From sequence record NC_073051.1: 37,268 nucleotides of DNA; one strand, 5' to 3'. Positions within the stretch are counted from its first letter, which is position 1. Every line of letters begins with the position of its first letter. Source of the DNA: Escherichia phage PEC14. Below the pieces are notes generated by a model. The model saw only the letters and a list, made by a program, of their open reading frames with translations, was not told the DNA's origin and made no database searches. The position numbers were made by a program, and so were the translations under genes. Of this stretch, positions 1,053 through 36,042 are shown piece by piece.

Positions 1053-1116
1053 CATTGGTTGCCATTTTGAGTGTTTTTAGCCGGTCGCATTGGTTGCCGT
1101 GTAGTGTGAATATAAT
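1053..1116 (+). promoter_or_regulatory. two copies of CATTGGTTGCC (1053-1063, 1088-1098) followed by TATAAT at 1111-1116
   Basis: Motif read directly; belongs to the ATTGGTTGC family recurring in intergenic regions of this window. Confidence 0.35.
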
Positions 1117-1149
1117 GCATAGTTATGCAATAAAACTGCATAAAGTAAG

Positions 1150-1310
1150 CGGGACAAAAAGCGGGACAGACCAGGGGCGGGACAAAGCGGGACAGCACCC
1201 CTGTCCCGCCCCGGATGACGCGGCCTGGCGGGGAGCGGGACAGGCGGGACAAAGCCCAGTCTTTCAGACTAGACGGGGGTCATTGGCCCCCCTCGTCTGA
1301 GACTGAATAA
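1150..1310 (+). repeat. copy 1 of ~160-bp duplicated element: CGGGACA heptamer array (1150-1200), 35-bp divergent core, 75-bp conserved block (1236-1310) with long imperfect palindrome 1257-1305
   Basis: Direct comparison with 17710-17870: 51-bp block identical except one base, 75-bp block identical, spacing preserved. Confidence 0.85.
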
Positions 1311-1459
1311 AATCCGGGATTGCATAATACACGGCAGCACATTGGAAATCGCGGTCGTCGCTGAACTAGGCAACCAATGCGAGATGCAGAACGGGGTGTG
1401 AAAAATGCAGTTTGCAGTCACAGCAGATAGCGATCAACTTTTTCATGCGCATGATTAAT

Positions 1460-1493
1460 ATTGGTTGCATCCATGCCAGCACCCTGCTAGATT
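1460..1493 (+). promoter_or_regulatory. candidate promoter ATTGGTTGCAT-N17-TAGATT upstream of early gene block
   Basis: TTGCAT at 1465-1470, 17-bp spacer, TAGATT at 1488-1493; about 30 bp upstream of ATG 1522. Confidence 0.4.
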
Positions 1494-1521
1494 GGTCGCA
1501 CACCAACATGAGGACTGAACG

Positions 1522-1827
1522 ATGAAAGCATTAATCTGGAATTACACAACGGCGGTGGCGAAGCTGTACGAAGCGAAGCACACAAACGGCAACGCAGACG
1601 ACGCGCGCCAGGTTGTTATCCTTGCCCAGCAGGGAATAATGAACGCGTTCGACGATATGTTTGCCAGCCTGGACGAACTGGAACCGCTGCGCGTGGCGAT
1701 CTGCGACTACGCGATGGCATTTGCCCGTGAGCGCCTGGCGTATCGCTTCGGGATCGGTGAGACGGCAGTGACAAACGTCGCCAGGATTAAAGCCCAGCGC
1801 GAACTATTCGCCCAGCTTGCGAAATAA
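1522..1827 (+). CDS. hypothetical early protein (101 aa)
   Basis: ATG preceded by GAGGA at 8-nt spacing; no recognisable motif. Confidence 0.5.
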   Translation: MKALIWNYTTAVAKLYEAKHTNGNADDARQVVILAQQGIMNAFDDMFASLDELEPLRVAICDYAMAFARERLAYRFGIGETAVTNVARIKAQRELFAQLAK

Positions 1828-1836
1828 GGGGCCAAA

Positions 1837-2106
1837 ATGGACCGCAGACGAGCTAAACAGCTTTCGTGGCATATTCCGCTGCATTGCATACGAATATGGG
1901 CGCAGAATGCGGTTGAGGGCGATTCTGTGTTCTGGTGCTATCGCGACGATGTGAAGCCATTAACGCAGACTCGCTATCTGCACCAGTTCGCCAGGGAGCA
2001 TGGGCTTGCCATAAAAACGTCCTTGCAACCAATTGGCATCCGTATTACATTACGCCGGAAGCCCGCAGTCGAGCGGGTAGGCAAACACTGGAGACTGAGC
2101 AAATGA
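1837..2106 (+). CDS. hypothetical protein (89 aa)
   Basis: ATG with AAGGGG SD; stop overlaps next start as ATGA. Confidence 0.4.
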   Translation: MDRRRAKQLSWHIPLHCIRIWAQNAVEGDSVFWCYRDDVKPLTQTRYLHQFAREHGLAIKTSLQPIGIRITLRRKPAVERVGKHWRLSK

Positions 2107-2636
2107 AATTACTATTCCGCCGCAAATCCGACGGCAAAATTCTCAGGCCAATACAGACCCTGGCCGCACACGTGCGCCTACACCACGCCGCAAGCGATCG
2201 GGTCTGGTGGGAGTCAAAAGCTAAACTGCCGGAGAAATACGATATCGTCACGCATGATATCGAGCGCGGCGATGTGCTGCGTGATATTCGCGACGGTAGT
2301 ATGCGGATCGTCGAGTATGTCGGTCTTCATGGTCTGCGTATGCAGAACCGCAAGGATGGCGTCGCCGGTATGACTTACTTCGGCCTTGTCAACTACGAAC
2401 GAGTGGGCCGCAAATACAGCCTTAGGGACCGCCAGCAGAATGGGCGCGCCTACGCGACCTACGACTCCCACCAGGTGCAGGCGAAGATGGGCAACGCAGT
2501 ACGCCAAATCGTCAACCGCTTTGATGCCGTGACGAACGCACAGCGCCATGCGCAGGAATATGGCGTTGGATTCATCCAGGTGGAACGAGACGGCAGCATG
2601 AAAGCCATCGACCCGCGCTCGGTGATTCTGAAATGA
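2103..2636 (+). CDS. hypothetical protein (177 aa)
   Basis: Start moved to internal ATG (MKLLFRRK) that forms ATGA overlap with the upstream stop; the track GTG at 1935 would overlap the previous gene out of frame. Confidence 0.5.
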   Translation: MKLLFRRKSDGKILRPIQTLAAHVRLHHAASDRVWWESKAKLPEKYDIVTHDIERGDVLRDIRDGSMRIVEYVGLHGLRMQNRKDGVAGMTYFGLVNYERVGRKYSLRDRQQNGRAYATYDSHQVQAKMGNAVRQIVNRFDAVTNAQRHAQEYGVGFIQVERDGSMKAIDPRSVILK

Positions 2637-2757
2637 GTGCGACTATCCGTGATATGCTTCAGCATAACCGCTTTGAGATAGGCGGTAGGGTGTTTCGCAA
2701 TTACTTCGTGGCGCGTGCATGGGCGCGCCATATTGGCAAACCGGAAGGGGCAATTCG

Positions 2758-3045
2758 ATGTTACACGATGTGATTTATTGGTTTGGTTTGATCTGCGGGT
2801 TGTGCCTGCTTACCGCGGTGCTGTTGGGCGTTCTGATGTTCGTAGTATGGCCCGCTGTGGAAGCCGCCAGCATTACCCGCATGACGTTCGAGATCTACAA
2901 GCGCCGTGGAATAACGGAGCACCCGACCAGGTTGCGCATGTGGTGGCTGTGGTATCGGGATATGATAGGCGGTCGAACATTCGAAGCCGTCCGATCATCC
3001 GGGTGGGAGTGGAAAGGCGTCGGCAAGTGGTCCATTTTCGATTAA
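2758..3045 (+). CDS. small membrane protein (95 aa)
   Basis: Hydrophobic N-terminal segment WFGLICGLCLLTAVLLGVLMFVVW; start chosen at ATG 2758 with GGAAGGGG upstream. Confidence 0.45.
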   Translation: MLHDVIYWFGLICGLCLLTAVLLGVLMFVVWPAVEAASITRMTFEIYKRRGITEHPTRLRMWWLWYRDMIGGRTFEAVRSSGWEWKGVGKWSIFD

Positions 3046-3065
3046 TTATGCAAGCGTGATATAAT

Positions 3066-3097
3066 CCCAGTGAGATAAAACTTACTGGGACTTTTTT
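3066..3097 (+). terminator. rho-independent terminator (hairpin + T6) directly upstream of the holin start
   Basis: cccagtgagataaaacttactggg followed by tttttt. Confidence 0.6.
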
Positions 3098-3388
3098 ATG
3101 GATAAGCTAAACGAGTGGTTATTCGCCCTTGCGTGTCTGGCTGGCGGCTTCGTAGGCGCACGCATTCATGGCGAGGCTACGAAAGGGCCGCTAAACTTCG
3201 TTTTGTATGTTGTAGTTGGCTTCCTGTGTGCCATATTTGGCGCACCGGCTATCGCTGAGTGGGCTGGTTTGTCGGGTGAGCGCACTGTCGCCGGTTTAGG
3301 CTTCGTAACCGCGATCTTCTGGATGCCAATCGCCGACCGGATCAGGGAGACTATTGCGTCGTTCCTACTTCCGGGGGGTGCAAAATGA
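3098..3388 (+). CDS. putative holin (96 aa, three hydrophobic segments)
   Basis: Three predicted TM stretches; immediately upstream of lysozyme gene. Confidence 0.5.
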   Translation: MDKLNEWLFALACLAGGFVGARIHGEATKGPLNFVLYVVVGFLCAIFGAPAIAEWAGLSGERTVAGLGFVTAIFWMPIADRIRETIASFLLPGGAK

Positions 3389-3630
3389 TTATCTCCGTCC
3401 TGTTGTTTGTTATCATAGGGGCTTCGTCCCTGTTTAACGTATATGCGCCGTCCGTTCAGGATGGTATCTTAGGCCGGGTGCTGTATCTGTTAACGGCAAT
3501 GATCTGTCTTATCGGATTGTTGCAAACAGGAGACGTATCTGATACCACCTGGACCGCGTTAATCTGGCTGTTTGCATTGCGCACCCTGCGTAATGCTGTT
3601 TTGAATGGGGTAAAACATGCGATTCAGTGA
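3385..3630 (+). CDS. small membrane protein, holin/antiholin-like (81 aa)
   Basis: Two or three hydrophobic segments; overlaps neighbours on both sides within the lysis cassette. Confidence 0.45.
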   Translation: MIISVLLFVIIGASSLFNVYAPSVQDGILGRVLYLLTAMICLIGLLQTGDVSDTTWTALIWLFALRTLRNAVLNGVKHAIQ

Positions 3631-4108
3631 CAACGGTCTACGATTTACGGCAGCCTGGGAGGCTTTCAGCCCGGTGCCGTATTTCGCGACCAAGAAAGAG
3701 CAGGCCCGCGGCCTGTACACCTGGGGTTATGGTCATACCGGCACTAATCCGCCTCGAAGCATTACCCGCGAGGAAGCGCTGGCACTTCTCAAGCGCGATG
3801 TGGCGTATGCCGAGGATTGGGTGAACAAATACGCACATCCGAGCATTAACCAGGCGCAATTCGACGCGCTGGTGGACCTGGTAATCAATGCCGGTCCGGG
3901 GCCGATCGTACCGGATGACGTCGCGAATGATTTCGATGATGCGGTGCGACTGGGAGACTGGGCGAAGGTCCGTGCTACTCTGCCGCAGTTCCGCAAGCAA
4001 GGTGGGGAAGTGCTTAAGGGTCTGGTACGCCGTGCAATCGGCAGACAGGCGTTGTTTGATGGTAAGCAGTGGGACGTTGCCGAGAAAATCGGGCGTAACG
4101 CTGCATAA
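3617..4108 (+). CDS. endolysin, phage lysozyme family
   Basis: Lysozyme-like N-terminal signature GLRFTAAWEAFSPVPY...LYTWGYGHTG; 163 aa; follows the holin-like genes. Confidence 0.75.
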   Translation: MRFSDNGLRFTAAWEAFSPVPYFATKKEQARGLYTWGYGHTGTNPPRSITREEALALLKRDVAYAEDWVNKYAHPSINQAQFDALVDLVINAGPGPIVPDDVANDFDDAVRLGDWAKVRATLPQFRKQGGEVLKGLVRRAIGRQALFDGKQWDVAEKIGRNAA

Positions 4109-4124
4109 TACGAGGTAACACAGT

Positions 4125-4292
4125 ATGTTAAAAAGCATTCTTGATCATAACGCCGACGCGCTCGCCGCGCTGGCTAAAACCGAAGACCCCGGCGCCCGCG
4201 CTATCATCGCGGACACTATCAACCACGCTGGGGTCTTCGATGCGAAGCTGCCAAGCCCACCACCGCAGGATGCATCCGGCCACGCAGCGTAA
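4125..4292 (+). CDS. small hypothetical protein (55 aa), not in ORF track
   Basis: ATG with GAGGT SD 9 nt upstream, translated by eye; followed by a strong terminator. Confidence 0.3.
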   Translation: MLKSILDHNADALAALAKTEDPGARAIIADTINHAGVFDAKLPSPPPQDASGHAA

Positions 4293-4298
4293 ACAATT

Positions 4299-4326
4299 AA
4301 GCCCGGTTAATTCCGGGCTTTTTATT
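4299..4326 (+). terminator. rho-independent terminator
   Basis: aagcccggttaattccgggctt followed by ttttatt. Confidence 0.7.
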
Positions 4327-4387
4327 GCTTGACTCGCAACCAACATAGACGCCATACTGCGACCAATCAACGAGAGGAGTAATCAAG

Positions 4388-4468
4388 ATGGCACGTAAAG
4401 ATATTTGGGTATTAGCGATCTGGACCACCGCGGCTTTTATCGGCATGGTTATTTGCGAATTGATATAG
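4388..4468 (+). CDS. 26-aa hydrophobic peptide (MARKDIWVLAIWTTAAFIGMVICELI) with strong SD
   Basis: GAGGAG 8 nt upstream of ATG; single TM-like span. Confidence 0.3.
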   Translation: MARKDIWVLAIWTTAAFIGMVICELI

Positions 4469-4481
4469 CCCGCCGCCATAC

Positions 4482-4507
4482 GGACCGTGGTATATTGTCC
4501 ACGGTCC
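4482..4507. other. perfect 9-bp inverted repeat GGACCGTGG-N8-CCACGGTCC without T-tract
   Basis: Read directly; loop contains TGGTATATT. Confidence 0.6.
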
Positions 4508-4529
4508 ACTAATCAGGAATTAATTAAAT

Positions 4530-5672
4530 ATGCACCCGCAAACTAAAATTACCGATGAGCAATTGATCGCAGAAATTCAGGCAGGGACTACGGTTAAAGA
4601 GATTGCGAAGAAATACGGGATTGCCCTGCGCAATGTCTATATGCGCAAAGCCCGCCTGTCGAAAAAGGGAATTGGTCACGGCAATGATGCCGTGATCCGT
4701 AAGCGCGTTGCCGATGGTTTTGGGGTTAAGCGCGTATCGGCCCTGGTGCGCGGAAATGGCGAAGAGGTCATGTCGTGGGTCATCACTGAGCAGGACAAGG
4801 AGCGCCAACTCGAAGCTATGCGCGCTGTTGTCGAGGGTATGAACAGCGAAATCACACCGGCAGCGCCTGTAAACGCCCCGCCAGTACCGATCCAGGCGCT
4901 CGACTTGCTCAACCTGTACACCGTGTCAGACTTTCACCTGGGAATGCTGGCATGGGGTGAGGAGACTGGCGAAGACTGGGATATGGCGATCGCCGAAGAC
5001 TTGTTCTACCGCTGGTTTGTCGAAGCCTTCGCCCGCGCACCGGACGCAGGCACTGCCGTTATCAATATCCTCGGGGATATGGCCCACTTTGATAGCCTGG
5101 ATGCAGTCACCCCGGCAAGCGGTCACGTACTGGACGCCGACACCCGCTACCAGAAACTGGTCCGATACATGATTCGCATGGTGCGCAACGTCGTAGAACT
5201 TGCGCTGCAAAAACACCACAAAGTCAAACTGCTAATCGTCCAGGGTAATCATGACGAATCCGGTATGATTTGGCTTGCTGAGATGTTCAATACCTTGTAT
5301 GAGAACGAGCCGCGCGTCGATGTGGACACGTCCCCGGACGTCTACAAAATGGTGCAGCACGGTAAGACTACGCTATTTTTCCACCACGGGCACAAAGCGC
5401 GATTCGATGTTATCGAGCAGGTTATGATCGCTAAATTCAGACAGGCGTTCGGGTCGAGCGAATACAGCTACGCGCACGTAGGCCATTTGCACCACCAGAA
5501 GATTGTTGAATCCCGCAACATGATTGTTGAACAGCACCGGACGCTCGCAGCGAAAGACGCCTACGCCAGTCGTGGCGGTTGGATGTCTGGTCGCAGCGCC
5601 AACGTCATTACCTACAGCGCCAACTACGGCGAAGTAGCGCGCTTAACCATTAGCCCAGAAATGTTGAAGTAA
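4530..5672 (+). CDS. HTH domain fused to calcineurin-like metallophosphoesterase
   Basis: N-terminal helix-turn-helix-like segment (TVKEIAKKYGIALRNVYMRKARL); phosphoesterase motifs in order DFH, GDMAHFD, GNHDE, HHGH, GHLHH. Confidence 0.65.
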   Translation: MHPQTKITDEQLIAEIQAGTTVKEIAKKYGIALRNVYMRKARLSKKGIGHGNDAVIRKRVADGFGVKRVSALVRGNGEEVMSWVITEQDKERQLEAMRAVVEGMNSEITPAAPVNAPPVPIQALDLLNLYTVSDFHLGMLAWGEETGEDWDMAIAEDLFYRWFVEAFARAPDAGTAVINILGDMAHFDSLDAVTPASGHVLDADTRYQKLVRYMIRMVRNVVELALQKHHKVKLLIVQGNHDESGMIWLAEMFNTLYENEPRVDVDTSPDVYKMVQHGKTTLFFHHGHKARFDVIEQVMIAKFRQAFGSSEYSYAHVGHLHHQKIVESRNMIVEQHRTLAAKDAYASRGGWMSGRSANVITYSANYGEVARLTISPEMLK

Positions 5673-5692
5673 CGACAACCAGTAATCCTCCC

Positions 5693-5719
5693 AGCCTGCC
5701 GATTTGGTGGGCTTTTTTG
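5693..5719 (+). terminator. probable terminator (8-bp stem with two G-U pairs + T-run)
   Basis: agcctgcc gattt ggtgggct then ttttttg. Confidence 0.4.
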
Positions 5720-5732
5720 TGCCTGTTATAAT
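5704..5732 (+). promoter_or_regulatory. sigma70-like promoter with extended -10 (TTGGTG-N17-TGT-TATAAT) ahead of terminase genes
   Basis: Hexamers and spacing read directly; overlaps the preceding terminator. Confidence 0.4.
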
Positions 5733-5802
5733 CCCCATTAGATGGCAGGGCCGTCTCCTATGTTGCCGATGGTCGGCGCATATGAACAAAAGGGCTTATA
5801 TC

Positions 5803-7739: not shown

Positions 7740-7750
7740 GGAAACCGACC

Positions 7751-10806: not shown

Positions 10807-11571
10807 TTAGCGCGGAATGCCGCAAATCTCGTTGAGTGTTTTCACATCCAGCGCCACCGCCGTGGATTTTGGCTTGTCCGGGTATGGGATGAATTGCTCA
10901 ACTTCAGGCCATGCCTTAATCAGCTTCTTGTCAGTATTGTGCAGGTCCAGTACACCGGTAACGGTGAGTTTGAACGCATCATACTTCGCGCGCAACTCGC
11001 GACGGGCCTTGTCGTTGCGGTCCAGGCGCTTACAGAAATCATGATCCGCCGGGAAATCTGCACGGCAGCGTGGCTTATAGATCGGCAGCGCTTTCCCGTC
11101 CTCGTCCACTTCACACACTGAAGCCAGCATAACTTCTTCAAACCCCGGTACGATATCGCCGAGATCGGGAGATAGCTTATTCATGTATTTATATTCCCAG
11201 TATCCGCGATGTACGCGGTATTGGTGGCCGTCACCGCTCAAGGATAAGGTGCGAACATTTCCGCCTGCGTTGATTTCGAAAGTGGCGTCGTAAACGCTGC
11301 CGATACCTTTCGGGCGGTCGGTGTTATAACTATATGTCGCCTTGTTGGTGTAGACGCAGACGCCGTACATCTGCGACGGGTCATCGCTGATTGCCTCGAT
11401 ACGCTCGCGTAGCGCGGAGAATGTGCGAATGCCGTCCGGCATACAGTCCAGCGTGATTGCGTACGCCAGATCGCGTGAGTCCATCATGATTGTTTTGGCT
11501 TCGGTAGCGATTTCGTGGTCGCGCAGGATGTTAGCCAGGATCTGATTTTTAATATCTTTCGTCAGTCTCAT
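10807..11571 (-). CDS. hypothetical protein (254 aa), minus-strand insertion in head module
   Basis: ATG with GAGGA SD 8 nt upstream; no motif recognised. Confidence 0.6.
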   Translation of the reverse strand: MRLTKDIKNQILANILRDHEIATEAKTIMMDSRDLAYAITLDCMPDGIRTFSALRERIEAISDDPSQMYGVCVYTNKATYSYNTDRPKGIGSVYDATFEINAGGNVRTLSLSGDGHQYRVHRGYWEYKYMNKLSPDLGDIVPGFEEVMLASVCEVDEDGKALPIYKPRCRADFPADHDFCKRLDRNDKARRELRAKYDAFKLTVTGVLDLHNTDKKLIKAWPEVEQFIPYPDKPKSTAVALDVKTLNEICGIPR

Positions 11572-11953: not shown

Positions 11954-11989
11954 GCAACCAATATACTGCAACCAACATTCACAATGCAA
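11954..11989 (-). promoter_or_regulatory. candidate promoter for minus-strand cassette: two ATTGGTTGC-type motifs plus TTGCAT-N18-TATATT
   Basis: Motifs read on minus strand, oriented toward the start at 11924. Confidence 0.4.
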
Positions 11990-16802: not shown

Positions 16803-16832
16803 TTTGGTCGCTTAAATAGCGGGTGATAATAT

Positions 16833-16857
16833 GGGGCCAGTACGGCCCTTTTTTTTA
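16833..16857 (+). terminator. rho-independent terminator (hairpin + T8)
   Basis: ggggccagtacggccc followed by tttttttt. Confidence 0.7.
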
Positions 16858-16872
16858 TTGGAGAATACGACA

Positions 16873-17552: not shown

Positions 17553-17870
17553 AGCGGGACAGGCGGGACGTCCCGTTTTGTCCCGCCACCATTAAACTGC
17601 ATATATACTCACTACCAGTGCATAAACTAAAAGCGGGACAGGGGTGCTGTCCCGATCTGTCCCGCCCCTTAAAAGTGAATAGCTAAGCGGTTTTTCTGCA
17701 TAAAACAAACGGGACAAAAAACGGGACAGACCAGGGGCGGGACAAAGCGGGACAGCACCCTGTCCCTGCCAGTGCTGCCGCGGGTTTTAGCCGATCGGGA
17801 CAGGCGGGACAAAGCCCAGTCTTTCAGACTAGACGGGGGTCATTGGCCCCCCTCGTCTGAGACTGAATAA
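17553..17870 (+). repeat. copy 2 of duplicated element plus extended CGGGACA heptamer array (direct and inverted copies) between chaperone and tape measure genes
   Basis: About 15 CGGGACA copies; 17710-17760 and 17796-17870 match 1150-1200 and 1236-1310. Confidence 0.85.
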
Positions 17871-17933: not shown

Positions 17934-20579
17934 ATGGCAGATCAGGCAGCGGGCATCACGCTCAAGGCGGACGTCGCGCAAATTAAAACGGCTAATACTG
18001 TGCTGGACACATTTGCGCAGAAATCCGAGAACACAGAACAGAAAGTAAAGAAATTAAACGACACCCTCGGCAAGTCGAAAAAGGTTACTGGCGACGCCGC
18101 TGGCGGAATGGAGAAGTTAGCGACTGAATCGCAGCGTGCCGCCGATGGCATGACGAAACAGGAGCGACTCGCCAGCCGATTAGGCATGTCTACCAAAAAC
18201 CTGGGATTCGCATCGCGGAACGCCGCATTCCAGTTGCAGGATATTGCGGTAACGCTTGAGATGGGTATGCCGGTCCACCGCGTTATGCTTCAGCAGCTAC
18301 CGCAGCTTACTGGGGCGTTTGGCGGACTTGGAAACACACTGCGATATGTTGCGGGCTTTCTCGGCCCAGTAGGGATCGGCCTTTCGGCATTAACGGCGAC
18401 GTTAGGCGTAGGGGTGGCAATTACGACCCGCGCAGAGAACCAGGTGGCGGCGCTTAATAAGACGCTGGCGCTATCCGGTAATATTTCAGGCCTCACAGCT
18501 AACCAGATCCTTGTGCTGTCCGAGAACGCCGAGCGCATGGGCGGGTCATTCCGCAAGACGCGTGACACAATCCAGGCGCTGGCGGCGGCGGGTGTGAAAG
18601 CGGGTGGTGACTTCGGCGCATTGGCTAAGGTAGTTAATGACTTTGCGAAGGTGTCCAGCCAGCCGATCGAGGATGTGGTAGCGGCGGTGGCGAAGCTGTC
18701 AACCGACCCCGTTGGCGGACTGCGTGCGCTGGCGGATAAGTATCACGTCGTAAACGAAGCGCAGATCCAGCAGGTACAGTCGCTCGTTGATACGGGTCGT
18801 GAGACAGACGCAGTTGCGTTGGCTAACAAAACAGCCGCGGCGTCGTTCACCAGCATGACCAATGAGATCAAGGCGAACATGGGTACGCTTGAGCGGTCGA
18901 TGAACGTCGTTACATCGGCAGCTAAGTCTATGTGGGATGCCATCCTGGATGTGGGCCGCGCGCAGTCCTCCAATGAGTCCGAGATGAAAGCGCGCGAATC
19001 ACTACAGCGCATGACCACGGCTTACTATGCCGAGATGAAAGCGGTAAACGCTGCCGGTGGAGTGATGACCGAAGCTCAGAAAGCGCGTATTAACATGCTT
19101 TATAGCGAACTGGTCGCCCAGGAGAAAGTAGTGGCGTCGCTCACCCTTCGTAACCGTGCGGAGCGAGACAACGCCCGCGCCGCAGACGAATCCGCAAAGG
19201 CGAACGAGGAGGCTAACCGCACCGCCCGCGACCGCGCTGCGTTCGAGAAGGAGTACGCAACTAACGCGAAGAAGCGCGCAGACGAGATAGCCCGCCTCAA
19301 TTTGCTGAATAAGCGCGGCGTTATTGACGAGAAAGAGCTTGCTGAGGCGGTTAAGCAGGTAAACGAGCGTTACAAAGACCCGGCCCCGAAGAAGGCCGCG
19401 GCTGTTCGCGTGGATGCCGGTATGAAAATGCTGGAAGTCGCACGGAGCGAACTGGCCCAGCTTCGAGAATCAGGCAAACAGATCGAAGCCAACGCATCGA
19501 CGCAGACCCGCACGCAACGCGCTCAAGCGGCCCTAAACAAGCTGATCGCCGACAATGAGCAGTTAATCGCTGCGAGCAAAGAAAGAGCGCTAACGGCAGC
19601 CGAAAAGCAGCAGATGGTGGAATTTGGACGCGTGAAGGAAGTGCGCGAGCAGATCGTCGAAGAAGCCAAATTGCTGGACGCGAAAGAGAAGCAGGTTAAG
19701 GCGCACGCGCAGATCGATGCCTTCGTTAAGAACCAGAACGCCGAACTAAAAGCCACCGCGGCGGGCTATGCGCTTTCCACTCGCGAAGCGGCAAACCTGC
19801 GCGAAGAATTGCAGCTAATCGACCGTCTGAAGAGGGTTGGCGCTAACGATACCGATATAGACAAGGCGGTGTCTAAGCTGCGGGAAGTGCAGGAGGCGCA
19901 GACCGGCGCTAACGCCTCGCTATGGGATGGATTCAGTCGCGGGCTTAAGGATAGCGTGGATGAGATGGGTAACGGATATACGCAGATGACGTCACTCACA
20001 AAATTCACGTTCAGCGCTATGCAGGACACGATGAACGAGTTTTTCGAGACGGGCAAGATTAACGCGAAGGATATGGTCAAATCCATCCTGAGCGAGTTAA
20101 TCAAGCTGGCTACCTCGCAGGCGTTCAAGTCGATTGTTAGCGCTTTCGGTGGTGACGGCGGCAAAAACGGATTGTTCGGCGCTATCTTCTCGGGCCTCAC
20201 TAAGAATGCGGACGGCGGAGCGTACGCAGGAGGCAATCTGGCGGCCTATTCGGGGAAAGTGGTAAGCCAGCCTACCTTTTTCAGTTATGGCGTCCAGGCG
20301 TTCGCTAAGGGCGCAGGATTGATGGGTGAGGCCGGTCCCGAGGCCATCATGCCTCTGAAGCGCGGGCCGGACGGGAAACTGGGCGTTGCCGCTTCGGGTG
20401 CTGGCGGCGGTGGTATGGTCGTGACGACTAACGTTTACACGGGGACTGGTAAAACGGATACCAGTGTCAGCGGGCCGGACCCCCGTACCGCGCAGGCGTT
20501 CGGCAAGCAAATCACCGAGGCGGTGAAGGCTGAGATCGTGAAAGCGACGAAACCGGGTGGTGTACTTTACAAACGATGA
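17934..20579 (+). CDS. tape measure protein
   Basis: 881 aa, Ala/Gln/Lys-rich helical repeats with Gly-rich C-terminal region; directly after chaperone/frameshift gene. Confidence 0.85.
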   Translation: MADQAAGITLKADVAQIKTANTVLDTFAQKSENTEQKVKKLNDTLGKSKKVTGDAAGGMEKLATESQRAADGMTKQERLASRLGMSTKNLGFASRNAAFQLQDIAVTLEMGMPVHRVMLQQLPQLTGAFGGLGNTLRYVAGFLGPVGIGLSALTATLGVGVAITTRAENQVAALNKTLALSGNISGLTANQILVLSENAERMGGSFRKTRDTIQALAAAGVKAGGDFGALAKVVNDFAKVSSQPIEDVVAAVAKLSTDPVGGLRALADKYHVVNEAQIQQVQSLVDTGRETDAVALANKTAAASFTSMTNEIKANMGTLERSMNVVTSAAKSMWDAILDVGRAQSSNESEMKARESLQRMTTAYYAEMKAVNAAGGVMTEAQKARINMLYSELVAQEKVVASLTLRNRAERDNARAADESAKANEEANRTARDRAAFEKEYATNAKKRADEIARLNLLNKRGVIDEKELAEAVKQVNERYKDPAPKKAAAVRVDAGMKMLEVARSELAQLRESGKQIEANASTQTRTQRAQAALNKLIADNEQLIAASKERALTAAEKQQMVEFGRVKEVREQIVEEAKLLDAKEKQVKAHAQIDAFVKNQNAELKATAAGYALSTREAANLREELQLIDRLKRVGANDTDIDKAVSKLREVQEAQTGANASLWDGFSRGLKDSVDEMGNGYTQMTSLTKFTFSAMQDTMNEFFETGKINAKDMVKSILSELIKLATSQAFKSIVSAFGGDGGKNGLFGAIFSGLTKNADGGAYAGGNLAAYSGKVVSQPTFFSYGVQAFAKGAGLMGEAGPEAIMPLKRGPDGKLGVAASGAGGGGMVVTTNVYTGTGKTDTSVSGPDPRTAQAFGKQITEAVKAEIVKATKPGGVLYKR

Positions 20580-20586
20580 TAAAATG

Positions 20587-20615
20587 GCCCTCACATCCAT
20601 CGTGGGGGCTTTTTT
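20587..20615 (+). terminator. hairpin + T-run abutting the next start codon
   Basis: gccctcacatccatcgtgggggc followed by tttttt then ATG. Confidence 0.45.
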
Positions 20616-28040: not shown

Positions 28041-28074
28041 AGTATTACACCGCTCGATCAAGAATGCAACCAAT
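28041..28074 (-). promoter_or_regulatory. candidate promoter ATTGGTTGCAT-N17-AATACT driving lipoprotein operon
   Basis: Motif on minus strand in the divergent region between lipoprotein and fibre genes. Confidence 0.35.
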
Positions 28075-29923: not shown

Positions 29924-29927
29924 ATCA

Positions 29928-30526: not shown

Positions 30527-30568
30527 TGTGAACCCCTCATTGATGCGGGCCGAAGCCCGCTATTAGAA

Positions 30569-31090: not shown

Positions 31091-31137
31091 AGTATTACCC
31101 TTTTTAGTGAGGGGGCTGTATTGCCCCCGACACGTTT

Positions 31138-31167
31138 ACTATAGTGCAACCAATCTATTGGTTGCAA
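31138..31167 (-). promoter_or_regulatory. perfect palindrome TGCAACCAAT-CT-ATTGGTTGCA with TTGCAA-N18-TATAGT
   Basis: Read directly at 31145-31166; overlaps the 3' end of the HAD gene and lies upstream of the gene starting at 31090. Confidence 0.45.
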
Positions 31168-31625
31168 GTGAATTTTGCAACGTTTATCGCGTAAATTTTC
31201 GGGACCAAATCACCACACGCCCGACGAATTGCTGCGATGTTCTTCGGGCAGTCTTCAATGATGACCAGTTCCGACACGTCCGCATAACAGACCATTTTGA
31301 ACACGGCGCACGCCTTAAACTCTGGCGGCGGGGTGTCGTCCAGCATGTGGCGCATAAACAACCTGCCTACCGGGAAGACCTCCAATTGCTCGGCGGTGGT
31401 TTCCCAGCATTCTCGCTGCCGGTTGGTCAGATACGCGATCTCGAAGCCTTGCTCTTTATACATGCGCAGTAGCGGCAGCATATCCATGTTCAGGTCTTCG
31501 CGGACGTGCGCCTTGTGCCACTTCGCCCAAAAGGTGGATTTAGTTTTTACACCCGGCACCAGGTCGGCACGCGCATCGCTTGAACCGTTAATAACGCCAT
31601 CCAAATCGCAAATCAGTAATTTCAT
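31155..31625 (-). CDS. HAD-superfamily phosphatase (possible nucleotidase)
   Basis: N-terminal HAD motif I LLICDLDGVI. Confidence 0.55.
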   Translation of the reverse strand: MKLLICDLDGVINGSSDARADLVPGVKTKSTFWAKWHKAHVREDLNMDMLPLLRMYKEQGFEIAYLTNRQRECWETTAEQLEVFPVGRLFMRHMLDDTPPPEFKACAVFKMVCYADVSELVIIEDCPKNIAAIRRACGDLVPKIYAINVAKFTCNQ

Positions 31626-31826
31626 TTTAAGCTCTCAATAAGGGTGTATCGGGCGCTGCGCGCGGTGAAGGAGTTACACACGAAATGGCAACGCGTGGTT
31701 ATGACAAGCCAGCCGGTAAGATCTAGGCCCAGAATATATTCAGGCCGCGACACGCGACGCACACGATCGCGGCGGGGGTCGATGCAGAAGTCTTTTTGCA
31801 TTTGGTCTACTACCGCAGGGTCGCGG

Positions 31827-32312
31827 TCAACGATTAAGATATTCAAGGAGTTCTCCTTCGCTCATTATTTCAATTTGTGCGCTGCCGGTGGGCGGCGCTT
31901 CGTCAAAGATTATCAATTGCTGGCACTTGTTATTGCTCGGACCGACTTCACCGGTTACAGCATGTATGAATCGGATCCGCCAGTCCAGAAGAATTATCAG
32001 GTTTGCAGTCTTCCGGGCCAGCTTTGCCCACTTCGTCGACGTGTCCTGATTCAGCAGCATGACGGTCCGGCGTCCGTGCGCTGCACACTCGACCCACGGC
32101 AGCGGATCGGAATACGGCGGGTTGCACCACTTCCACCCTTTCAACTCTGACCAGTCCGCCTCAAGCGCGCTGTGCTCTGCCGTGAAGTAACGCGGTAGCA
32201 GGTGGTTGGCATCGCTCGCCGCCATGTCATAACGGAATCGGTACTTCCGGCGCAGCGGTTTAAATAAAGCTGGCGGCGTGCGCCAGCTATCTTTTTGCTC
32301 ACTCTTCTGCAT
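31827..32312 (-). CDS. dam: DNA N6-adenine methyltransferase (phage Dam family)
   Basis: WRTPPALF motif and catalytic NPPYS motif present. Confidence 0.75.
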   Translation of the reverse strand: MQKSEQKDSWRTPPALFKPLRRKYRFRYDMAASDANHLLPRYFTAEHSALEADWSELKGWKWCNPPYSDPLPWVECAAHGRRTVMLLNQDTSTKWAKLARKTANLIILLDWRIRFIHAVTGEVGPSNNKCQQLIIFDEAPPTGSAQIEIMSEGELLEYLNR

Positions 32313-32763
32313 GGTCGGTGTCTATCGCATACAGGGCGATTTTATCGCCGGTTTTGAGAATGCGTTGCACGCGCTTTGTCCCCTCGACACTAAGCGGACG
32401 CGCGTCCGGGTAGAAGCTGCCATTTGTAGGGTTGCGCCACGCCATAAGCACCAAATCTTTACGGTCAACCTTAGACTGGCGACCCTTCGGTCGCACGTAC
32501 TCCTCGGCCCGTTTACAGTGCTCCCGCAACGCCTCAGCCGTGATGCGGTTTAGTGCAACGCTGGTGGTGTATCCGGTGCGCTGCATAATCCCCATCAATT
32601 CGAATAGCAGTCCGAAGCGCTCCGCTAGATCCTGGCGCACTTTCTTCTCTCCTTCATATAGCGCCTGGTTGGTGTCCGCCAACGCGTTCGCACGTTCGGC
32701 CTGTTCGCGGGCTTTAAGGCATTGCGCAGCCCAGTAATCCTTTTCTTCTTGTAAAATTTTCAT
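32299..32763 (-). CDS. hypothetical protein (154 aa)
   Basis: ATG abuts the upstream stop; overlaps dam start. Confidence 0.45.
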   Translation of the reverse strand: MKILQEEKDYWAAQCLKAREQAERANALADTNQALYEGEKKVRQDLAERFGLLFELMGIMQRTGYTTSVALNRITAEALREHCKRAEEYVRPKGRQSKVDRKDLVLMAWRNPTNGSFYPDARPLSVEGTKRVQRILKTGDKIALYAIDTDHAEE

Positions 32764-33006
32764 CTATTTAAACTCCGTTGTGCGGATTTCCTTGCGTGGT
32801 ATAAATTTGCCGTCTTTCTCGACCCAGCAAGTGCCACCGCGCCACTGGGTGTTACGACCTGTTAGTTCTGCGTAGACAATCCGGCATTCATATTTATCGA
32901 GGTTATACGTGCAGGAAATCGGCAGCAGGAGACAAAAGAATAAGAACAGCACCATACACACCCAAAAACGTAAATCCCCGTCGTCGTCAAAAAAGAATCG
33001 TTTCAT
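32764..33006 (-). CDS. small membrane protein (80 aa)
   Basis: Start at ATG 33006 with GAGGA SD; hydrophobic segment FWVCMVLFLFFCLLLPI. Confidence 0.4.
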   Translation of the reverse strand: MKRFFFDDDGDLRFWVCMVLFLFFCLLLPISCTYNLDKYECRIVYAELTGRNTQWRGGTCWVEKDGKFIPRKEIRTTEFK

Positions 33007-33051
33007 GGTTAAATCCTCATATAAAAAAGGGCATCCAAACCGGACACCCTC

Positions 33052-33085
33052 AATATAATGCAACCAATATGATTATGCAACCAAT
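33052..33085 (-). promoter_or_regulatory. candidate promoter: two ATTGGTTGCAT copies with TTGCAT-N17-TATATT
   Basis: Read on minus strand at 33060-33068 and 33077-33085; -10 at 33052-33057. Confidence 0.45.
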
Positions 33086-33409
33086 TTACGCATAAAAGTT
33101 AGGGTCGCGTGCAACGTCTACCAAATACAGATTGCTGATTCGGTTGCCGTAGTGGCCTGGCGTGCGCTGACGGCACACTACGGCATAGCCTGGAGGTATT
33201 GTATTGCCAGTCTCAATGATCCACGCCACGCGTGCGCCAGACAGCGTCTTGCCGTTGTACTCGATACGAGTACCGCCATCGGCAGTGTTAAGGTTGCCAA
33301 TCTTGCTACCGGTAGACTTCAGGCGGATGACGCCCGTTTTACTGTCGTAGGTGAATAGCTGATTGGTCATTGCTACCGAAAAATCGATGGCTTCGAATGT
33401 GGTATTCAT
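33086..33409 (-). CDS. HNH_3/homing-endonuclease-like DNA-binding protein, probably catalytically degenerate
   Basis: Pattern GARVAWIIETGNTIPPGYAVVCRQRTPGHYGNRISNLYLV resembles HNH_3 domains but lacks the His in the catalytic position. Confidence 0.4.
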   Translation of the reverse strand: MNTTFEAIDFSVAMTNQLFTYDSKTGVIRLKSTGSKIGNLNTADGGTRIEYNGKTLSGARVAWIIETGNTIPPGYAVVCRQRTPGHYGNRISNLYLVDVARDPNFYA

Positions 33410-34116
33410 TCTAAATTTTCCTCGTTAACTGCGATTGCGAAGCCGCGCGGGGTGCGCGACCTGATTAGTTTGGTGCGGGCCGATTTGCCTCCGAGGCGAC
33501 TATACTGCTTCGAGTACCCTTTTTCAACGAAAACAGGTTTCTTCTCTGGCATACGGAAGCCGTTGCCGGTCCATAAGCAGGTCAGCTTCGGATATGAATC
33601 GCGGGCGTTGATGTATTCAGGGAATAACGGGTGTACGTCATCCTCTGGCAAATAGCCTCCATACTCCCACGGGTCAAACGAGTGGTCCGGCTTACGCCAT
33701 TGAGTGGAGAGCACGCTGCGCGGATTCTCAATCATATACGGCACTTCGAAGAAATCACCCAGGTAAGCGGCGATCTTCGCGGTGCGCACCGCCTTAAGCT
33801 GGAAGGCAGGGTCGCGGGCGCGTTTGCGCGGGAACGCTGGCGCACCACTAACCGCCAGATCCGTACACGGCGGGAATGCATAGATGATATCCGGCGTGCC
33901 GAAATCACCATTCATCGCGCGGTCCACGAAGTCCAGATCGATAAACTCATTACGATATCGGATACCGCGCCCATAAATCCGGTAGTCCAGGTACGACCCG
34001 TGATCGGCTTCGGAGTAGTTGAAGCAATAACACTTATGCCCCATCTCGGCAGCACGCTCAATCATCAAGCCGCTGCCGTCGAATAATGACCAGATTGTCA
34101 TTTTAGCAATAGTCAT
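33406..34116 (-). CDS. short C5-cytosine-methyltransferase-like protein (236 aa)
   Basis: Motif I-like SLFDGSG, motif IV-like FPPCTDLAVSG with Cys, motif VI-like ENP; no room for a full target-recognition domain. Confidence 0.5.
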   Translation of the reverse strand: MTIAKMTIWSLFDGSGLMIERAAEMGHKCYCFNYSEADHGSYLDYRIYGRGIRYRNEFIDLDFVDRAMNGDFGTPDIIYAFPPCTDLAVSGAPAFPRKRARDPAFQLKAVRTAKIAAYLGDFFEVPYMIENPRSVLSTQWRKPDHSFDPWEYGGYLPEDDVHPLFPEYINARDSYPKLTCLWTGNGFRMPEKKPVFVEKGYSKQYSRLGGKSARTKLIRSRTPRGFAIAVNEENLE

Positions 34117-35537
34117 TTGCGCGCCTTTTTAGCTTTCATATATTCCATCAGGTCGTCCTGAATATCTCGCTTACTGTCTCGACGCTCTGCGACTAGTTCA
34201 TCCAGTGTGCCGCGCGCCTGGATAATGTAGACGAATACCGGACGAGGGTGTCCGGCTTGCATCTGGCGAACTGGCCCGATACGCTCCACGATCTGCGCAA
34301 AGTGCTCATAGTTCCAGGTATCTGAGAAGATAGCAAGGTGGTGCCCGCCATCCTGCAAGTTAAGGCCGTGACCCGCCGATGCCGGGTGCGCGAACATGAT
34401 GGGGATCTCGCCCCTGTTCCACGCTTCCATATCCTTATTGCCTTGCTTACCCTTACCCATCGCTACGCCGTGAGGGAATTTCTTCTTAAGACGTGCCAAG
34501 TCATGCTTGTACTGGTATGCTACGAGCAACGGTGCGCCGTTCAACTCTTCCACGATACTTTCCAGCGCGTCCAGTTTAGCGTCGTGAATTTTCACCCATT
34601 CGTCGGTGCGCTCGCCGTCTTCGTCGACCTTATACACGGCCCCGGAAGCAAGCTGAAGGCACTTAATGGTCTTCGAAGCAGCGTTCGCCGCCTCCACCGT
34701 TCCGCTTTCCAGTTCGGCAAATAGCTCCGCTTCGAACTGGTCATAAATCTTGCGGGCTTTCTTCGGCAGGTCCACAACAACCGGCGTATAGATTGGCTTG
34801 TCACATCCGAAGTATTCAGCCGCGTCAACGGTAAGGGATACGTCAGACAGGCGTTGTTGGATCTCCTTCTCGGAGTTCTTTAGCGGGGCGTGCTGCATAG
34901 TGAAGCTGCCAGGCTTAACAGGCTTGCTAATAAACCAGCGATCCGTAAATGCCTTATAGCTACTGCCGAGGCGTTCGCCACCATCGACAAACCATGTCTG
35001 CCCCCATAGGTCTTTCAGCCCGTTCGGTGCGGGTGTGCCGGTCAGGTTAATCCAGCGCTTGACGTGCTTATGTGCGATCGCTGCCAGCGCACGGGCGCGC
35101 TTGCTCCCCTGCTTGCTACGATAGCCTTTCAGCTTAGTCGATTCATCGGCAACAACGACCGTAAAGGGCCACGCATCGCCGTAATAGTCGACCAGCCACT
35201 CAACCACATCGTAGTTAACACAAACCACGTTAGCGTCGCTCTCAAGCGCCGCAATACGGTCCTTCTCCGGCCCGGTGCCGTCTACGACCAGCAGGGATGA
35301 GAATCGCCATTTCTCCTGTTCCGGGGGCCAGGTGCCGGACGCAACGCGCAGCGGGGCCAGCACCAGTACGCGGTCCTCCTGGCTGGACAGGATACCAGTC
35401 TGGAACATTTTATTCAGCGCCCACATAGTCGCGCCGGTTTTACCCGACCCCATTGTCGCCCATATATTGCATCGCTTATGTTTTAGGATGAACGCGGTTA
35501 TCAACTTCTGATATTCGCGACGTCGGAATCGTGCCAT
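34113..35537 (-). CDS. SNF2/DEAD-like superfamily 2 helicase
   Basis: Walker A MGSGKTGAT, DEx-box VVVADESTK; start chosen at ATG 35537 (MARFRRREYQ). Confidence 0.75.
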   Translation of the reverse strand: MARFRRREYQKLITAFILKHKRCNIWATMGSGKTGATMWALNKMFQTGILSSQEDRVLVLAPLRVASGTWPPEQEKWRFSSLLVVDGTGPEKDRIAALESDANVVCVNYDVVEWLVDYYGDAWPFTVVVADESTKLKGYRSKQGSKRARALAAIAHKHVKRWINLTGTPAPNGLKDLWGQTWFVDGGERLGSSYKAFTDRWFISKPVKPGSFTMQHAPLKNSEKEIQQRLSDVSLTVDAAEYFGCDKPIYTPVVVDLPKKARKIYDQFEAELFAELESGTVEAANAASKTIKCLQLASGAVYKVDEDGERTDEWVKIHDAKLDALESIVEELNGAPLLVAYQYKHDLARLKKKFPHGVAMGKGKQGNKDMEAWNRGEIPIMFAHPASAGHGLNLQDGGHHLAIFSDTWNYEHFAQIVERIGPVRQMQAGHPRPVFVYIIQARGTLDELVAERRDSKRDIQDDLMEYMKAKKARK

Positions 35538-35541
35538 ATCT

Positions 35542-35760
35542 TTATTCCGCCTTTTTCCAGACTTCGGTTTCACTGTTCCAATTCCTCTTAGTGGCGTAAT
35601 AGTATGGGTCGTGCTCAAGGTGCACACCGGTAGCGCGGAAGCTCTGGAACTTTTGCCAGCACACGGTCAGCGGCAGCGGTTTAGCCATTCCTGAAGTAAA
35701 CCATACGCGATCGCCCGGTTTACATTCGCCCAGCTTGGTGAGTCGGTAATGTTCTTTCAT
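35542..35760 (-). CDS. hypothetical protein (73 aa)
   Basis: ATG with GGAG SD; 4 nt upstream of helicase start. Confidence 0.35.
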   Translation of the reverse strand: MKEHYRLTKLGECKPGDRVWFTSGMAKPLPLTVCWQKFQSFRATGVHLEHDPYYYATKRNWNSETEVWKKAE

Positions 35761-35803
35761 CGTCATATCTCCCAAAAATGGCGGGACAAGCCCGCCATAT
35801 TGA

Positions 35804-35977
35804 TTATTCTTGTTCTGCACGATAGCGGCGCTGCCGTTCGCGCTCTTTCTTATTGCGGCAAGACTTGCACTCGGCCCGATGACCGTCTGGACTTCGCGCA
35901 GTCTTGCCGGTGTACTTGTGGAACTGGGATAGCGGCTTGATGCATCCGCAATTACTACAACGTTTTTCTTCAATCAT
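35804..35977 (-). CDS. small zinc-ribbon protein (57 aa)
   Basis: CSNCGC...ECKSCRNK double CxxC; GAGGA SD 8 nt upstream of ATG 35977. Confidence 0.4.
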   Translation of the reverse strand: MIEEKRCSNCGCIKPLSQFHKYTGKTARSPDGHRAECKSCRNKKERERQRRYRAEQE

Positions 35978-36008
35978 TTCTAAAATCCTCGATAGTGCCA
36001 ACCTGCAC

Positions 36009-36042
36009 ACTATACCGCTACGCGACCAATTCAGCAACCAAT
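36009..36042 (-). promoter_or_regulatory. candidate promoter ATTGGTTGCTG-N17-TATAGT inside 3' end of VRR-NUC gene
   Basis: Motif copies at 36022-36030 and 36034-36042; -10 at 36009-36014. Confidence 0.35.

Follow-up and report, generated by a model that had tools for sequence, protein, structure and literature searches.

Why does one nine-base word, ATTGGTTGC, recur between the genes of a lytic phage, and what might read it? The window, by which we mean the whole stretch of 37,268 nucleotides analyzed from Escherichia phage PEC14 (NC_073051.1), belongs to a lytic siphovirus (genus Dhillonvirus) that carries no lysogeny module. Dhillonviruses are common coliphages, represented in the BASEL collection, among phage therapy candidates and in studies of defense systems. 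In the searchable literature, we found neither a paper on Dhillonvirus transcription nor transcript-end data. The original prediction took the word, found in the sequence, for the mark of a class of early or middle promoters, and possibly for an activator box. We consider it about an even bet that the copies, with the consensus ATTGGTYGC, are operators of a phage-made DNA-binding regulator that acts mainly as a repressor, with the protein PEC9_55 as the leading candidate; the binding, the binder and the sign of the regulation are all inferred. Such a control circuit is apparently undescribed, albeit of a familiar kind.

The abundance of the word is not in doubt. The window contains 12 exact copies against 0.52 expected, an approximately 25-fold enrichment matched by none of 100 shuffles, and 25 matches against 10.7 expected when one mismatch is allowed. 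The meaningful one-off copies are ATTGGTCGC (1491, 4359 and 36022) and GTTGGTTGC (4336 and 11968), bringing the set in the window to 17. Of the positions listed earlier, three need correcting, as these copies start at 1054, 1089 and 4336 rather than at 1053, 1088 and 4338, and three others, at 1491 (plus strand), 4359 and 2025 (both minus strand), had been missed. The claim that copies are intergenic or located at gene ends holds for the full PEC9 genome, where 10 of the 13 exact copies fall in the 7.1% of the genome that is non-coding (binomial P = 7.6e-10) and two more occupy the last codons of genes; the equal density within coding sequence that would speak against a promoter role was not seen. 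The sole copy deep inside a coding sequence (2025..2033, minus strand) is antisense to a gp51-like ORF (1837-2106) and sits where relatives change from conserved to diverged sequence; its function is doubtful.

Comparison of alignment columns across 7 Dhillonvirus genomes showed that 89% of the 9-mer columns are invariant, compared with 58% of those in neighboring non-coding DNA (P = 2.5e-11). The spacers between copies vary freely across the same genomes, the promoter hexamers stand out as conserved islands, and in farther relatives, contigs with only ~72% nucleotide identity, the 9-mer is kept at equivalent places. The information content is limited to the nine asymmetric bases, the flanks farther upstream carrying none. 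These sequence comparisons support the view that the 9-mer is a conserved, functional, promoter-associated element.

As sigma-70 promoters, we accepted a -10 hexamer whose second base is A and whose sixth is T, provided that TTGxxx lay 16-18 bp upstream and a gene downstream. This predicted seven units with the 9-mer in the window, two on the plus strand (-35 to -10 hexamers at 1465-1493 and 4329-4358) and five on the minus strand (11989-11960, 28069-28041, 31167-31138, 33080-33052 and 36037-36009); at least two others are found elsewhere in the genome. Of the 17 copies in the window, 14 fall within the span from about -40 to +10 relative to a predicted promoter. In five promoters, a perfect copy ends exactly 19 nt before the -10 and only TTG of the -35 consensus is present. 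The conserved extension ATTGG is located at about -40 to -36. The A/T-rich tract between -40 and -60 that characterizes an UP element is absent from the 9-mer promoters.

In four units, a distal copy in forward orientation supplies the -35. The copy at 1460..1468 (plus strand; perfect in 7/7 genomes) provides TTGCAT (1465-1470), 17 bp from the -10 TAGATT (1488-1493), for the promoter of the early plus-strand genes, and the copy at 28066..28074 (minus strand) provides TTGCAT for the promoter of the lipoprotein operon, whose -10 is AATACT (28046-28041). Read on the plus strand, the latter copy directly follows a -10-like hexamer, AAGAAT, upstream of the tail-fiber gene, and phage LM40P1 has a second copy 17 bp downstream of the equivalent site. 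The copies at 33077..33085 (minus strand; perfect in 7/7 genomes) and 36034..36042 (minus strand) supply TTGCAT and TTGCTG, respectively, the latter with a 17-bp spacer to TATAGT. In a fifth unit, the -35 comes from an inverted copy (31157..31165, plus strand), the palindromic core of which, TTGCAA (31167-31162, minus strand), serves the minus-strand promoter with the -10 TATAGT (31143-31138); LM40P1 has a direct copy here, and the location of the -35 is unchanged. In a sixth, the -35 of the minus-strand cassette promoter, TTGCAT (11989-11984), lies outside any perfect copy, within a degenerate one. Thus, six promoters, rather than the seven originally counted, have a TTGC-type -35 spaced 17-18 bp from a -10, and copy 1089 does not fit the pattern, ending 13 nt before TATAAT (1111-1116).

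Overlap with the -35 accounts for just one of the three or four placements that recur, the copies occupying at least four positions in both orientations. Three minus-strand copies in spacers end 2 nt before the -10, namely 33060..33068 (before TATATT, 33057-33052, and 17 bp downstream of the distal copy at 33077), 31146..31154 (before TATAGT) and the GTTGGTTGC copy at 11968..11976; a fourth, the ATTGGTCGC copy at 36022..36030, ends 7 nt upstream of TATAGT (36014-36009), falls within the final codons of the gene for the VRR-NUC protein and reads ATTGGTCGC in 7/7 genomes as well as in L129 and L131. Two copies start inside the -10 and span +1, each followed by ACACCAAC, an inverted half-site: the ATTGGTCGC copy at 1491..1499 (plus strand), which begins at position 4 of the -10 and is ATTGGTTGC in the other six genomes, and 11954..11962 (minus strand), which overlaps the -10 TATATT (11965-11960) of the cassette promoter and is perfect in 7/7 genomes. 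Finally, promoters with a good -35 of their own, TTGACT or TTGACC, carry inverted copies within the spacer or immediately 3' of the -10, at 4329-4367 and at two promoters outside the window. The former, a plus-strand promoter with TTGACT (4329-4334), an 18-bp spacer and CATACT (4353-4358), has a GTTGGTTGC copy in the spacer (4336..4344, minus strand) and a ATTGGTCGC copy directly 3' of CATACT that spans +1 (4359..4367, minus strand). The motif had been described as oriented toward the downstream gene everywhere except at 1370, which holds only in part: 4336, 4359, 2025 and 31157 also run counter to the gene at their locus, and three more inverted copies are found outside the window.

These placements bear on whether any dedicated factor is required at all. 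The 9-mer could be a mere flavor of sigma-70 promoter that multiplied as promoter cassettes were duplicated and was retained for the TTGC in the -35, given that TTGCAx is a correctly spaced -35 in five or six units and that several units (33077/33060, 31146 and the LM40P1 version of 28066) resemble paralogs. We regard this as very improbable. The ATTGG upstream of TTGC is as invariant as TTGC itself, although it is not read by sigma-70 and is not A/T-rich as an UP element would be; inverted copies and those off the -35 are conserved equally; and no -10 is found at the right distance from the copies at 1054, 1089 and 1370.

The transcription units that carry the word are those of the non-structural genes. 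The 9-mer is absent from the terminase, capsid and tail genes, as originally noted, and the late units carry instead a motif-free extended -10, TGaTAnnAT, at 3057, 5724, 12016, 16824, 17889 and 20577. The sequence thus supports the 9-mer as the mark of an early/middle promoter class, from which the late units are excluded. In this respect, the original prediction stands, the class marker being both real and conserved, but the element is not simply a gene-oriented -35 with an upstream extension.

How would such an element act? Copies in the spacer, over the -10 and +1, or inverted within promoters that have a good -35 occupy positions of occlusion, and together with those over the -35 they make up the layout of operators. 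Placements of this kind are what one usually sees where an operator obstructs RNA polymerase, and they speak against the activator box suggested at first, although for the -35-overlapping copy alone the role could still be an activating one. We propose that a sequence-specific phage protein binds ATTGGTYGC within the core elements of almost every early/middle sigma-70 promoter, with one copy over the -35 and, in most units, one or two more, often one base off. The -35-overlapping copies are perfect in 35/35 cases (5 promoters in 7 genomes), compared with about 30/55 for the other copies. As a global repressor, the accumulating protein would occupy the strong copy before the weaker ones, and this occupancy would shut down the early and middle units while the late genes run from their motif-free extended -10 promoters.

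The main competitor, an activator box or extended -35, is unlikely in our judgment. Here, an early phage protein bound at the -35 copy would recruit, or replace part of, the host polymerase to turn middle promoters on, the extra copies providing later negative feedback, comparable to T4 MotA, Mu Mor and lambda CII. In favor of this reading are the five perfect copies exactly 19 nt before a -10, at promoters that match the -35 consensus only at TTG, and the fact that the -35-overlapping copies are the best conserved of all. The -35 hexamers of the motif promoters are also weak (TTGCAT, 3/6), and a copy overlapping the -35 can activate, as with lambda CII, both of which count against the repressor. 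However, an activator box leaves unexplained at least ten copies in spacers, over the -10 and +1 or inverted in TTGACT/TTGACC promoters; several motif promoters (1460, 28066) combine a TG extended -10 with 17-bp spacing and should work unaided; and no MotA or AsiA domain was found by Pfam among the 30 proteins scanned, a subset of the ORFs.

Three copies next to the helicase-primase gene raise the possibility of a role in replication. The first two, of the CGCATTGGTTGCC type, are direct copies 35 bp apart on the plus strand downstream of the helicase-primase gene, 1054..1062 (invariant in 6/7 genomes) and 1089..1097. The latter matches none of the promoter placements, which is a difficulty for the repressor reading; it faces a cluster of GCGGGACA repeats and forms a perfect 14-nt inverted repeat with 1369-1382, within which lies its inverted partner (1370..1378, minus strand), the pair bracketing the cluster and a hairpin. 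The copies might then primarily be sites of a replication initiator or origin organizer, present at promoters only secondarily. In favor of this, the three copies share an extended flank, CGC...C, in forming the inverted repeat; the cluster it brackets is directly 3' of the helicase-primase gene, and the gene of the candidate protein directly precedes that gene; and the SO-1 record annotates the stretch as a repeat region. Nevertheless, we give this origin-centered reading little credence, because 14 of the 17 copies are elsewhere, at fixed distances from conserved -10s in seven dispersed transcription units, and a second repeat region (17554-17812) contains no copy in PEC9. Under the preferred repressor reading, the bracketing copies would mean that the regulator may also act at a replication origin.

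The form of the site says something of its reader. Unlike a dyad-symmetric operator for a dimer, the 9-mer is asymmetric, and the flanks of the copies contain no fixed partner half-site. Inverted partners exist for only some copies and at differing distances, as in ATTGGT-N5-ACCAAC at 1491 and 11954 and ACCAAT-N2-ATTGGT at 31146/31157, and pairs are spaced by 11 (inverted), 12, 14, 17, 23, 31 or 35 bp. The lack of a fixed partner and the varied spacing suggest, at the level of sequence, a small single DNA-reading domain.

The candidate reader is PEC9_55, a 109-aa homolog of SO-1 gp47 encoded outside the window directly upstream of the helicase-primase gene. In a Pfam scan of 30 small or hypothetical PEC9 proteins, it was the only one with a DNA-binding domain (HTH_23, Sigma70_r4_2 and HTH_28), and its AlphaFold2 model (mean pLDDT 88) consists of a long helix and a helix-turn-helix (HTH). 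The N-terminus is hypervariable, and the last 60 aa at the C-terminus hardly change in any of the lineages in which the 9-mer is retained. Proteins of this type and the 9-mer are both found throughout Dhillonvirus and are both absent from the related phage Bas75. The promoter of the candidate gene carries an exact inverted copy at about +10 in the distant relatives L129 and L131 and, in four PEC9-type phages, a near-cognate palindrome, GTTGGTCATTARCCAAY, that matches at only 7/9 positions; HK578 and CHD5UKE2 have no copy. In view of the co-occurrence in one genus, the gene position and these autoregulatory-looking copies, PEC9_55 is the most likely candidate for the binder. Any of the small phage proteins that lack a recognizable domain, roughly half of them, could bind instead; in HK578, the putative recognition helix carries four substitutions while the 9-mer is unchanged.

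The candidate also provides arguments for activation. Its own promoter has a perfect TTGACA -35 and no perfect copy, as expected of an immediate-early gene at the head of an activator cascade, which this promoter fits as well as it fits a repressor, and its HTH resembles sigma region 4, the reader of the -35. A bolder version, to which we assign a low probability, is that PEC9_55 is a free-standing -35 reader akin to sigma region 4 that docks on the polymerase and redirects it to ATTGGTTGC promoters. If so, this would be a minimal, one-protein sigma appropriation in which region 4 of sigma-70 is displaced, the hypervariable N-terminus would be a contact surface for polymerase or host in an arms race, and the spacer and +1 copies would titrate or stall the protein, timing the switch.

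A host reader, that is, an E. coli transcription factor exploited by the phage, is the reading to which we attach the least probability. No E. coli regulator is known to have this consensus; resemblance to the CytR octamer GTTGCATT is limited to the 3' half of the 9-mer, and that to the ExuR/UxuR half-site ATTGGT to the 5' half. Furthermore, the 9-mer occurs in a single phage genus, as does an HTH protein specific to that genus.

The result is a testable wiring diagram, in which some ten early/middle promoters share one regulator word, the late promoters form a motif-free extended -10 class and a single gene is the candidate for the regulator. It can guide re-annotation, since the record appears to contain one mistaken gene and several mistaken start codons, as well as the choice of payload insertion sites and timed promoters in phage engineering and the reading of infection RNA-seq.

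As a kind of system, this is unsurprising, and parts of it recur in well-known phage and host circuits. The T4 MotA box is likewise a word peculiar to the phage that takes the place of the -35, or overlaps it, in promoters of one temporal class, its distance from a good -10 being constant, but MotA boxes occupy a single position (about -30) and require AsiA, whereas the 9-mer is found at four or more positions in both orientations. Lambda CII (TTGC-N6-TTGC at PRE, PI and PaQ) shares TTGC direct repeats on a weak -35 and, given the candidate PEC9_55, a small HTH regulator, and shows that a -35-overlapping site need not repress; CII, however, needs the fixed N6 around the -35, whereas the direct spacings here are 12, 14, 17, 23, 31 and 35 bp, none of them the CII type, and copies can be inverted or lie over the -10 and +1. 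LexA boxes and the lambdoid CI/Cro operators OR1-3 offer a similar picture of a word shared by many promoters over the -35, spacer, -10 and +1, with strong and weak copies suggestive of graded occupancy and, for the candidate regulator in L129 and L131, a copy at its own promoter, but those sites are dyad-symmetric, read by dimers and fixed in geometry, and the present ones are asymmetric, with no constant spacing or helical phase. Phage phi29 p4, to which we found no relation in sequence or fold, is, like the proposed regulator, a small regulator of a lytic phage with several sites on or near core promoter elements (A2b, A2c and A3), governing an early-to-late switch by repressing where it overlaps a promoter and activating at the flank of a -35; its sites are inverted repeats in a single control region, where it works with the histone-like p6, whereas here an asymmetric 9-mer is distributed over at least nine promoters.

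Dhillonviruses are lytic siphoviruses with genomes of about 44 kb. By megablast, the window is 99.8–100% identical to Escherichia phage PEC9 (ON548431.1; window coordinates equal PEC9 coordinates plus 1420) and matches about 150 further Dhillonvirus genomes at 87–95%; it lacks a genome segment of about 7 kb, which stretches from the DNA polymerase gene up to where the helicase-primase gene starts. A literature search found no publication on the 9-mer ATTGGTYGC (hereafter, the word), nor on promoters or transcription in Dhillonvirus or HK578; the HK578 record annotates three consensus promoters only, and the transcription signals annotated in the WFI record are all terminators.

Counting against shuffled controls confirmed the enrichment claimed in the original prediction: ATTGGTTGC occurs in 12 exact copies in the window versus 0.52 expected, a number reached in none of 100 shuffles, and a blind k-mer survey ranked the word with the most enriched k-mers. 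One-mismatch copies adjoin exact ones, namely, ATTGGTCGC at 1491, 4359 and 36022, and GTTGGTTGC at 4336 and 11968. Rather than being equally dense in coding regions, 10 of the 13 exact copies in the complete genome fall within the 7.1% of the DNA that is non-coding (P = 7.6e-10), and two more are in the last codons of genes. The only exact copy deep within a gene, at 2025-2033 (-), is flanked by sequence that is conserved in relatives on one side and replaced on the other, and may mark a mosaic recombination joint, not a regulatory site. The copy list first drawn up from the sequence was essentially right, with three coordinates 1-2 bases off and the copies at 1491, 4359 and 2025 missed. A scan of viral contigs for pairs of copies no more than 30 bp apart provided no evidence of the element outside the genus, where multi-copy matches were tandem repeats in coding sequences of unrelated viruses; an Rfam scan of the window yielded no match.

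To PEC9 we added six Dhillonvirus genomes (WFI, SO-1, LM40P1, Oekolampad, HK578 and CHD5UKE2) and aligned every motif-bearing non-coding stretch. In the alignments, the 9-mers and -10 hexamers are invariant blocks between freely varying spacers, and 89% of 9-mer columns are invariant across the seven genomes versus 58% of other non-coding columns. The same word is also kept at equivalent intergenic places in two metagenomic contigs (L129 and L131) with only about 72% nucleotide identity to PEC9. Taken together, these comparisons show the word to be under strong purifying selection.

The information is limited to the nine bases, with weak preferences for TA 2-3 bases upstream and A downstream, and no partner half-site was found at a constant distance. 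Relative to the conserved -10 hexamers, the copies take a few recurrent positions. In the distal placement (1460, 28066, 33077 and 36034), the copy ends 19 nt before the -10 and its TTGC begins the -35; copy 31157 is distal but inverted around a palindromic TTGCAA, and its LM40P1 counterpart has the direct orientation with the -35 position unchanged. Spacer copies end 2 nt (33060, 31146 and 11968) or 7 nt (36022) before the -10. At 1491 and 11954, the copy lies over the -10/+1 region as TA(T/G)ATTGGTYGCACACCAAC, ending in ACCAAC, an inverted half-site; the conserved ATTGGTYGCACACCAAC at these two 5' ends could be read at the RNA level, but its hairpin is weak (-3 kcal/mol, z = -0.2), and we therefore read it as inverted DNA half-sites. 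Finally, inverted copies occur in promoters with good -35 hexamers: TTGACT-18-CATACT at 4329-4358, whose spacer contains one copy and whose -10 is immediately followed by another, and two outside the window, TTGACC-17-TAGATT before the gene that precedes the single-strand-binding protein gene, and TTGACT-17-TAATAT before the gp46 homologue. Pairs are spaced by 11 (inverted), 12, 14, 17, 23, 31 and 35 bp, so no constant helical phase is maintained. Distal copies are perfect in 35 of 35 cases (five promoters, each compared across seven genomes) and the others in roughly 30 of 55, which suggests that strong and weak sites exist. A generic promoter scan returned no more sites than in shuffled sequence; since such a scan misses TTGCAT-type -35 hexamers, our promoter calls rest on conservation instead.

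The annotated minus-strand gene PEC9_8, 4297-4479 (-), spans the 4329 promoter, a terminator and two 9-mer copies and is therefore probably spurious. A 26-aa hydrophobic ORF missing from the annotation, MARKDIWVLAIWTTAAFIGMVICELI, lies at 4388-4468 (+); its strong ribosome-binding site and ATG are kept in six of seven genomes (not LM40P1). Two start codons in the PEC9 record look too far upstream on account of their overlap with 9-mer copies: that of the tail-fibre gene at 28064, for which ATG 28091 with a GAGGA ribosome-binding site agrees with the WFI annotation, and that of the minus-strand cassette gene at 11978, for which ATG 11924 is preceded by GAAGGAAG. The second gene of the cassette under copies 11968/11954, at 10807-11571 (-), matches Nmad5, a nucleotide-modification-associated domain (E = 9e-59), and the phage also codes for Dam-like and Dcm-like methyltransferases.

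Six plus-strand intergenic extended -10 elements, TGaTAnnAT, at 3057, 5724, 12016, 16824, 17889 and 20577, all lack the 9-mer and immediately precede the holin, terminase, scaffold/capsid, tail-chaperone, tape-measure and minor-tail genes, probably forming a late promoter class. They support the distinction of promoter classes made in the original prediction, and from their position before structural and lysis genes we infer that the word marks non-structural units and that late genes use another promoter type. The unit at 4329, which might be taken for a late one, in fact precedes a small peptide and a phosphoesterase and stops at a terminator ahead of the terminase promoter. Four places, 3057-3096, 16824-16860, 20577-20615 and 33057-33022(-), have a strong terminator hairpin whose 5' arm directly adjoins a -10 hexamer (the hairpin at 33051-33027, for example, has -15 kcal/mol). 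This looks like a repeated terminator-promoter reset design: transcripts coming from upstream would be terminated there, and those initiated at the promoter would have their 5' ends within the stem and so avoid termination.

A Pfam scan of 30 small or hypothetical PEC9 proteins detected a DNA-binding domain in PEC9_55 only (HTH_23, Sigma70_r4_2 and HTH_28, residues 65-105). This 109-aa homologue of SO-1 gp47 is encoded just before the helicase-primase gene, outside the window (41397-41726 of L001, a sequence reaching beyond it). By tblastn it is limited to Dhillonvirus, and a search of 5.8 billion proteins yielded only 24 clusters. The C-terminal 60 aa are almost invariant and the N-terminal 45 aa hypervariable or replaced outright (alignments A1 and A2), as in HK578 and CHD5UKE2, with a different, longer N-terminus; this suggests that a conserved module for reading DNA is coupled to an interaction module that evolves fast. 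An AlphaFold2 model (mean pLDDT 88) has a short helix and a single 58-residue one besides the helix-turn-helix. Fold, sequence and profile searches matched only the generic three-helix DNA-binding unit of resolvase/Hin, IS21 transposases, LuxR/GerE and sigma region 4, with E values around 1 throughout and none significant, so we assign no family; the record labels 'transposase', 'resolvase' and 'nuclease inhibitor gamma' are unsupported beyond the helix-turn-helix.

The promoter of PEC9_55 is a consensus TTGACA-17-TAGTTT, followed in PEC9-type phages by a near-cognate palindrome, GTTGGTCATTARCCAAY, and, for the homologues in L129 and L131, bearing an exact inverted word copy at about +10, an arrangement that may reflect autoregulation. 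The related phage Bas75, with a similar replication module, has neither a PEC9_55 homologue nor a comparably enriched word. The word never varies: it is also the same in HK578, whose homologue differs at four positions of the putative recognition helix. The case for PEC9_55 as the binder is circumstantial. The stretch between the divergent gp46/gp47 promoters (outside the window, at L001 41230-41300) contains a strong terminator on the minus strand, AGCGCCGTCGCATTTTGCTTCGGCGCT then a T-run, closely following a promoter that the HK578 record annotates; a small RNA roughly 60 nt long could result.

Copies in the spacer, over the -10/+1 region and inverted within promoters with a good -35 occupy classic occlusion positions, and on this ground we take the set as operators of a mainly repressing phage regulator. 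That the word copies are repressor operators with gp47 as the predicted binder is, in our judgement, an evenly balanced proposition. Graded filling, with perfect copies occupied before imperfect ones, would turn down the early/middle units, and the motif-free late promoters would keep running. At the -35-overlapping copy, either repression or activation would fit: lambda CII offers a precedent for a site in this position that activates, and an activator cascade would fit the weak TTGCAT -35 hexamers of the motif promoters together with the regulator's own consensus promoter. We regard an activator or dual role, close to the activator box first proposed, as the less likely reading.

The blind survey also exposed a second, unrelated repeat, GCGGGACA(A/G), with 15 exact occurrences clustered in two non-coding regions, 1149-1252 after the helicase-primase gene and 17554-17812 before the tape-measure gene, which the SO-1 record annotates as repeat regions B and A, respectively. 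Common to both is an approximately 100-bp module with a long GC-rich hairpin at its end; the two regions may be origin-like elements, recalling P4 ori/crr or SPP1 oriL/oriR. Copies 1054, 1089 and 1370 of the word, which share an extended flank CGC...C and include a perfect 14-nt inverted repeat, bracket seven GCGGGACA repeats and the long hairpin directly after the helicase-primase gene. The regulator may thus also act at an origin, although most copies are at promoters. An origin function for the word shares the remaining weight with a factor-free promoter flavour and a host factor; against the last, overlap with the word is limited to one half of it, both for the CytR octamer and for the ExuR/UxuR half-site.

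Compared with known systems, the one described here falls outside phi29 p4, regulon-type repressors, lambda CII and T4 MotA by their defining features. The word lacks the dyad symmetry of regulon-type operators, its copies do not keep the fixed N6 spacing of lambda CII, and they occupy several positions, unlike the single box position of T4 MotA; no MotA or AsiA domain was found in the Pfam scan of the 30 PEC9 proteins. Its proposed mode of working recalls phi29 p4 and regulon-type repressors and, as far as the distal copy is concerned, lambda CII or T4 MotA.
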